Source: Escherichia coli (GTDB lineage: Bacteria > Pseudomonadota > Gammaproteobacteria > Enterobacterales > Enterobacteriaceae). Taken from it: a DNA stretch of 64,000 bases. Where the stretch lies: the NCBI RefSeq assembly GCF_003334385.1, contig NZ_QOWN01000006.1. One strand, 5' to 3'. The notes under the pieces were generated by a model that ran no database searches, was not told where the DNA came from, and saw only the letters and a program-made list of their open reading frames with translations. Of this stretch, positions 31,117 through 31,821 are shown one piece after another; position 1 is the stretch's first letter, and the number at the start of each line of letters is the position of its first letter. The position numbers and the translations under genes are program-made.

Positions 31117-31135
31117 TATGTTACAATATAACATT
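31117..31135. promoter_or_regulatory. Candidate Zur box in the zinT promoter
   Basis: atgttacaatataacatta, near-palindrome resembling the Zur consensus, 36 bp upstream of the zinT start. Confidence 0.5.
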
Positions 31136-31170
31136 ACACATCATATACATTAACTCTGGAGGAAACTGTT

Positions 31171-31821
31171 TTGGCGATTCGTCTTCATAAACTGGCTGTT
31201 GCTTTAGGTGTCTTTATTGTTAGCGCTCCTGCCTTTTCGCATGGTCATCACTCACACGGCAAACCCTTAACAGAGGTCGAACAAAAAGCTGCTAATGGTG
31301 TTTTTGATGATGCCAATGTACAAAACCGAACGCTCAGTGACTGGGATGGAGTCTGGCAATCCGTTTATCCTTTACTGCAAAGTGGCAAACTTGACCCCAT
31401 CTTTCAGAAGAAAGCGGATGCAGATAAAACCAAAACATTTGCTGAAATTAAAGATTATTATCGCAAAGGTTATGTGACAGACATCGAGATGATTGGCATT
31501 GAGGACGGCATTGTCGAATTCCATAGAAATAATGAAACAACATCCTGTAAATATGATTACGATGGATACAAAATACTCACCTATAAATCAGGCAAGAAAG
31601 GCGTTCGTTACTTATTCGAATGTAAAGATCCTGAAAGCAAAGCCCCTAAATATATACAATTTAGCGATCATATAATTGCACCACGAAAATCATCTCATTT
31701 TCACATTTTTATGGGTAATGATTCCCAACAGTCTTTATTGAATGAAATGGAAAACTGGCCAACGTATTATCCCTATCAGTTGAGTAGCGAAGAAGTGGTC
31801 GAGGAGATGATGTCTCATTGA
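31171..31821 (+). CDS. zinT: Periplasmic zinc/cadmium-binding protein ZinT (YodA)
   Basis: 216 aa; signal peptide then His-rich HGHHSHG; apparent TTG start 9 nt after RBS ggagg. Confidence 0.85.

Follow-up and report, generated by a model that had tools for sequence, protein, structure and literature searches.

A probable Zur operator over the promoter and a TTG start codon in the control region of Escherichia coli zinT

The 64,000-nucleotide stretch of Escherichia coli DNA analysed here (the window) has, between positions 30700 and 32100, the last part of msrQ, then 256 bp of intergenic DNA, and an open reading frame of 216 codons (31171-31821), listed with TTG as its start and with a product of 216 amino acids. 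By megablast, positions 30900-31900 are 100% identical to E. coli strain 2013C-4538, among others, and are matched in 5418 of 5426 complete E. coli genomes, where the annotation reads msrQ and zinT; RefSeq names the identical DNA zinT, 'metal-binding protein ZinT'. The gene zinT (yodA) encodes a zinc-binding protein of the periplasm, a helper of the ZnuABC importer. It is a well-studied zinc-starvation gene of E. coli, whose operator and TTG start have already been characterized or annotated.

The encoded protein aligns over residues 1-216 with crystallized E. coli ZinT/YodA (1s7d/5yxc; E = 2.6e-147), with four substitutions, and the 193-aa chains of the mature protein in the PDB (1oee and others) cover residues 24-216. 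Because these mature chains begin at residue 24, residues 1-23 are, as judged from the alignment, a cleaved signal peptide, with HGHHSHG as the mature N-terminus. The translation agrees in form, with R4 and K7 in the n-region, followed by a hydrophobic core and then by AFS immediately before HGHHSHG. A preliminary description of this DNA, made from the letters alone, had named the gene zinT, and that name is borne out by the full-length match to the ZinT/YodA structures and by the RefSeq annotation of the identical DNA. The coding region is divided as follows:

31171-31239, plus strand: signal peptide, 23 codons (alignment of PDB chains; n-, h-, and c-regions visible in the translation)
31240-31821, plus strand: mature ZinT, residues 24-216, and the stop codon TGA at 31819-31821 (match to 1s7d/5yxc; RefSeq product name)

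Upstream of the gene, the following control features were identified, the promoter elements being putative:

31104-31109, plus strand: candidate -35 hexamer TTGCAT, weak, 19 nt upstream of the candidate -10
31115-31138, no strand assigned: Zur operator, composed of a 23-bp box (31115-31137), a near-palindrome (31118-31134), and a 20-nt motif (31119-31138) (pattern matches, identity to K-12, conservation)
31129-31134, plus strand: candidate -10 hexamer TAACAT, inside the right arm of the Zur box (published box position; kept in relatives)
31142, plus strand: approximate, putative transcription start (published positions -23 to -4 mapped onto 31119-31138)
31158-31162, plus strand: Shine-Dalgarno sequence GGAGG (read from the sequence; invariant in 8 of 8 E. 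coli; its GAGG/GGAG core at -12 to -9 is 79-96% conserved across genera)
31171-31173, plus strand: TTG start codon of zinT (sole canonical in-frame start; RefSeq; conservation)

Within the operator lies the near-palindrome ATGTTACAATATAACAT (31118-31134), whose 8-nt arms pair at seven of eight positions around a central A at 31126. The reverse strand of this 17-mer matches it with three mismatches, one of them the centre, and this 17-mer with at most three mismatches is expected by chance 0.08 times per 64-kb window. The structure-based E. coli Zur motif TGWNAYRWTATAWYRTNWCA, a 20-nt IUPAC pattern for two dimers taken from Gilston et al. 2014 (PMC4219657), is matched without mismatch at 31119-31138, as TGTTACAATATAACATTACA, for which the chance expectation is 0.14 per window even with two mismatches allowed. 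The 23-bp gamma-proteobacterial Zur box, GAAATGTTATA-N-TATAACATTTC, scores 18/22 at 31115-31137, the sole such site in the 64 kb, detected on both strands of the same palindrome. The 21-nt core of this consensus is matched with three mismatches, and the expectation for up to three is 0.00.

The preliminary description had read a near-palindrome 36 bp upstream of the start as a Zur-type operator consistent with Zur repression. The palindrome is indeed present, and the gap between the 17-mer and the TTG at 31171 (31135-31170) is exactly 36 nt, although its beginning had been set one base early, at 31117 rather than at the correct 31118; T31117 is unpaired with T31135. The assignment to Zur stands, as both published consensus patterns match and the same operator core, that of K-12 zinT, has been characterized as a Zur target in publications. 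Two further candidates at the palindrome were discarded. A possible third Zur half-site, TGTTATA at 31112-31118, which would be a direct repeat of the left arm, varies among E. coli (GTT, GCT, GTC, TTC, GCC) and therefore does not belong to the conserved operator. A mini-ORF of 11 residues (31118-31153) that begins at the ATG of the palindrome has no Shine-Dalgarno sequence, is out of the zinT frame, and starts upstream of the putative transcription start; it is treated here as a probable by-product of the Zur-box consensus.

Between 31116 and the end of the start codon, the window does not differ from K-12 MG1655 (zinT, yodA, b1973), so that operator core, GGAGG, spacer, and TTG are all shared, and the only difference within the operator span is T31115 for C. 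The two loci also share the protein length of 216 aa (four residues differ) and the left neighbours hiuH-msrP-msrQ; they differ in a few substitutions upstream of 31116 and in the signal peptide, with His6 in place of Tyr6. The K-12 zinT operator has been studied by footprinting and EMSA: Zur protects approximately 30 bp, Zur binds cooperatively, as a dimer of dimers, with a Kd-app of 0.053 x 10^-18 M2, and zinT mRNA is repressed 984-fold by Zur in MG1655 (PMC4219657). Work on O157:H7 (Gabbianelli et al. 2011, PMC3053223) found ZinT to build up when the medium is poor in zinc, to be switched off by zinc, and to be made constitutively once zur is deleted.

Other members of the regulon provide points of comparison. 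The divergent znuA/znuC operator, which has been crystallized with Zur (PMC4219657), carries the same 20-nt motif (TGTGATATTATAACATTTCA, versus TGTTACAATATAACATTACA at zinT) with the same offset to the 23-bp consensus, and its core-promoter position is -22 to -3, versus -23 to -4 at zinT (PMC5916954). In contrast, the zinT operator serves a single gene rather than a divergent pair, binds Zur about 150-fold more tightly than that of znuC (Kd-app 0.053 versus 8.2 x 10^-18 M2), and confers ~984-fold repression compared with ~7-fold at znu (PMC4219657). Upstream of their coding starts, K-12 ykgM/ykgO and pliG have a Zur-box-like TGTTATxxTATAACA as zinT does, but their genes start with ATG whereas zinT starts with TTG.

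The promoter elements of zinT can be placed only approximately. Velasco et al. 2018 (PMC5916954) assign the zinT Zur box to positions -23 to -4, counted from the transcription start, and on that basis +1 would lie near 31142 and the -10 hexamer at 31129-31134; the exact positions of -35, -10, and +1 are thus putative, and the +1 at about 31142 is second-hand. A literature search for primary mapping of the yodA/zinT transcription start turned up nothing relevant. A scan for consensus sigma-70 promoters found none at the operator, where the E. coli hexamers are poor and 19 nt apart, and its two matches farther upstream (31008-31037 and 31028-31057) are backed by no other evidence and were not retained. 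Among relatives, the Zur box contains TAACAT with 17-nt spacing after TTGnnn in 12 related loci, and the three Escherichia sequences (E. coli, E. albertii, and Escherichia sp. MOD1-EC7003) read TTGCAT-19 nt-TAACAT. In strain PEC240, a 5-bp deletion (TTGCA), equivalent to 31104-31108, gives TTGTTT-17 nt-TAACAT, with the spacing seen in Leclercia and Silvania; this deletion could produce a stronger promoter, or could be an assembly error.

The putative 29-nt leader has no unusual structure, and a 99-nt segment of leader and early coding sequence folds no better than shuffled sequences (z = 0.51). A known RNA element in the leader or its flanks was rejected, as a search of Rfam at gathering thresholds was empty between msrQ and the tRNA-Ser gene. 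Between msrQ and zinT, at 30948-30977, there is also a REP-like imperfect palindrome (GCCGGATGCGGCGC / GCGCCCTATCCGGC).

The zinT frame opens after the TAA at 31128-31130, and TTG 31171 is the sole in-frame ATG, GTG, or TTG up to the WDGVWQ motif (31342). The GGAGG at 31158-31162 is followed by 8 nt (AAACTGTT) and then by the TTG at 31171-31173, and the Lys and Arg of the signal peptide's n-region sit between this codon and the hydrophobic core. The next Met is residue 106, and a start there would delete the signal peptide together with the metal-binding N-terminus. RefSeq places the start at this TTG both in K-12 b1973 (651 bp, equal length) and in the identical strain. The same codon had been proposed in the preliminary description as the only in-frame start that lies ahead of the signal peptide at a sensible distance from the ribosome-binding site, a choice well founded in that it is the sole canonical codon, lies 8 nt from GGAGG, is the RefSeq start, and is kept in 12 genera. 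On these features of the sequence, TTG 31171 is probably the codon actually used.

A literature search found no protein or ribosome-profiling data for the zinT initiation codon. N-terminal proteomics of mature ZinT would be unable to settle the start, because signal peptide residues 1-23 are removed, and the solved ZinT structures are likewise silent on residue 1, the signal peptide having been cleaved. UUG serves as the start codon of about 3% of E. coli genes and has 10-100% of the initiation efficiency of AUG, compared with about 1-2% for near-cognate codons (bioRxiv 10.1101/063800). A UUG start is uncommon yet normal in E. coli, and zinT resembles the other UUG-start genes of that study in combining a canonical but weaker start with a good Shine-Dalgarno sequence at optimal spacing.

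Within E. coli, a 91-nt query over the operator and start matched 5373 genomes, only 737 of them at 99% identity or higher, so the region as a whole is polymorphic. In an alignment of eight E. coli sequences (the window, K-12, and six genomes spread over the identity range), ATATGTTACAATATAACATTACA, GGAGG, and TTG are invariant in 8/8, and positions 31113-31115, just left of the box, vary along with several leader positions. In strain P15-385, the transposase gene of IS621 (IS110 family) ends about 300 bp upstream of zinT, in the place occupied elsewhere by msrQ, and in WCHEC4533 and WCHEC000837 zinT is interrupted by IS1 and annotated as two ZinT fragments and an IS1 transposase.

A wider comparison was made by scanning one genome per species with a degenerate DNA pattern for 10 ZinT residues, which returned 32 loci, all but one from Enterobacterales. 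With the window, the 28 loci that had enough upstream sequence make 29 sequences, 24 from outside the Erwiniaceae and 5 from within; the sample is small and partly redundant (four Leclercia, three Escherichia, two Silvania, and two Atlantibacter), and the search pattern missed Salmonella, Klebsiella, Yersinia, and Cronobacter. A Zur box scoring 13-16 out of 16 is present in 29/29 sequences, with both arms conserved. The distance from the box to the homologous start is 27-36 nt in 24/24 non-Erwiniaceae sequences and 15-28 nt in the Erwiniaceae, and outside the Erwiniaceae a GAGG/GGAG Shine-Dalgarno sequence precedes the start by about 7-9 nt.

The start codon itself is TTG in 21 of the 24 non-Erwiniaceae loci, GTG in two, and ATG in one, and it is ATG in all five Erwiniaceae loci (Erwinia and Rosenbergiella). 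The TTG starts come from 12 genera: Escherichia, Enterobacter, Phytobacter, Silvania, Atlantibacter, Leclercia, Citrobacter, Yokenella, Lelliottia, Huaxiibacter, Superficieibacter, and Serratia. Neighbouring synonymous and spacer sites (+6, -5, -6, and -7) are saturated, with a top base of 38-46% (38% at the third base of codon 2), and T is found at +1 in 88% of loci. The four bases immediately before the start (31167-31170, T-A/G-T-T) are 67-79% conserved, compared with a top base of 42-54% in the rest of the spacer between the Shine-Dalgarno sequence and the start. The persistence across genera of the TTG start, together with its T-rich spacer, is the only addition made here to the known picture, and a small one.

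Taken together, 31104-31173 is very probably (at roughly 0.93) the control region of E. coli zinT, consisting of a Zur operator laid over the promoter and followed by a TTG start. In this assessment, the motif matches, the uniqueness of the start, the conservation, and the identity to K-12 come from sequence, and the binding of Zur, its footprint, the repression, and the response to zinc come from the K-12 literature. In zinc-sufficient cells, two zinc-loaded Zur dimers would bind the AT-rich pseudo-palindrome at 31115-31138 cooperatively, and, with the operator covering the -10 hexamer and ending a few bases before the transcription start, RNA polymerase would be excluded, giving approximately 1000-fold repression. 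As cytoplasmic zinc falls, Zur would leave the DNA and a transcript with a short, unstructured leader of about 29 nt would be made; treatment with cadmium or a chelator would produce the same zinT response. Ribosomes would then start at TTG 31171, 8 nt after the strong GGAGG, and make a 216-aa precursor that would be exported, its Sec signal peptide (23 residues) being cut after Ser23, before HGHHSHG. The biology is not new, and the example illustrates that raw sequence is enough to recognize a metalloregulatory switch of the textbook kind and to choose the right non-ATG start.

Both halves of this reading have competitors. The palindrome might belong to Fur (iron) or to another regulator, or be plain AT-rich promoter DNA, since Fur-family boxes are all AT-rich inverted repeats and, with the -10 hexamer inside the palindrome, part of the conservation could belong to the promoter. 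Puskarova and colleagues are also said to have proposed, in 2002, regulators besides Zur for yodA. The best Fur-box match within 31060-31170, however, is 11/19, a background score equalled at 529 positions in the window, and a Fur box at zinT was rejected, whereas the Zur patterns match uniquely. Both arms of the palindrome, and not just the half with the -10, are kept across genera, and the identical K-12 sequence is a biochemically characterized Zur operator (PMC4219657), so that an operator for anything other than Zur is hardly credible. Only marginally less improbable is the proposal that translation begins at one of the near-cognate codons ATT 31177 (codon 3) or CTG 31192 (codon 8), with TTG a mere convenience of annotation. 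The literature search found no direct experiment on the zinT initiation codon, and near-cognate codons can initiate, at about 1-2% of AUG, but UUG does so at 10-100%, far above them (bioRxiv 10.1101/063800). Furthermore, ATT and CTG lie 14 and 29 nt from GGAGG compared with 8 nt for TTG, codons 3 and 8 are not kept as ATT and CTG in other genera while TTG is kept, and a start at CTG would lose R4 and K7, the charged n-region.

Why TTG should be retained is a separate matter. We consider the chances slightly better than even that its persistence across genera reflects phylogenetic inertia or weak selection rather than selection favouring a weak start. The sample comprised only about 24 related loci, several of them from close relatives and with Salmonella, Klebsiella, and Yersinia outside the sample, and the codon can evidently change without loss of the gene, being GTG or ATG in 3/24 loci and ATG in 5/5 Erwiniaceae. 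On the other side, neighbouring synonymous and spacer sites are saturated (top base 38-46%) while T at +1 stands at 88%, and TTG is kept in 12 genera although one T-to-A substitution would turn it into ATG. Because the neighbouring neutral sites are saturated, inertia pure and simple is an unlikely reason for the retained T at +1.

The contrary proposal, which we put forward tentatively and regard as rather unlikely, is that selection in Enterobacteriaceae and Serratia preserves the weak TTG start as a throttle on the translation of a gene that varies approximately 1000-fold in transcription. The T-rich spacer, T-A-T-T at -4 to -1, would be part of the same feature, and the throttle could cap the load of ZinT on Sec and the periplasm upon release of Zur. 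More speculatively, ZinT output could be sensitive to initiation by zinc-starved ribosomes carrying the Zur-regulated L31B/L36B paralogues. A start codon with a regulatory function is a feature of infC, whose AUU is the target of autoregulation by IF3; to our knowledge, no regulatory role has been described for that of zinT. Among the genes of the K-12 Zur regulon, zinT is the only one with a non-ATG start, and weak starts as a theme of the regulon were discarded, as znuA, znuC, znuB, ykgM, ykgO, and pliG all start with ATG. If selection for TTG were true, zinT would offer a convenient, strongly inducible model for why genes keep weak starts.

The TTG start is in any case worth keeping in annotation. 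The ATG of the Zur box (ATGTTA...) is in frame with zinT in E. albertii (MLQYNITNPTTQEKTVLATRLHK), C. freundii, Lelliottia, Huaxiibacter, and Superficieibacter, and in such relatives gene callers that favour ATG could wrongly extend ZinT by about 16 residues into its own operator.

Downstream of zinT (31822-32045), the window lacks yodB (b1974, a putative cytochrome b561), which follows zinT in K-12. Where K-12 has about 1 kb of its own sequence, the window has about 224 bp of unrelated DNA with the zinT terminator hairpin, and from near 32046 onward the two are homologous again. The short, yodB-less version is found in 2272 of 5426 complete E. coli genomes, and is therefore a common presence/absence polymorphism. 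The hairpin (31910-31936) has a folding energy of -17.1 kcal/mol (z = -3.62; 2 of 200 shuffles fold as well); a simple terminator scan did not list it, and from its fold and the T run that follows it is likely the terminator of zinT. This terminator and the noncoding RNA genes found elsewhere in the window are:

31910-31942, plus strand: likely intrinsic zinT terminator, in which an 11-bp hairpin containing one bulge (31910-31936) precedes a run of T (folding)
15091-15177, minus strand: DsrA sRNA (Rfam, gathering level)
23580-23669, plus strand: RseX sRNA (Rfam, gathering level)
32494-32580, minus strand: tRNA-Ser, serU (Rfam, gathering level; name from RefSeq)
33572-33644, plus strand: tRNA-Asn, asnT (Rfam, gathering level; name from RefSeq)

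The identical strain carries, after the tRNA-Asn gene and from about window position 33809, a frameshifted gene for a tyrosine recombinase/integrase, which suggests an island inserted at asnT.
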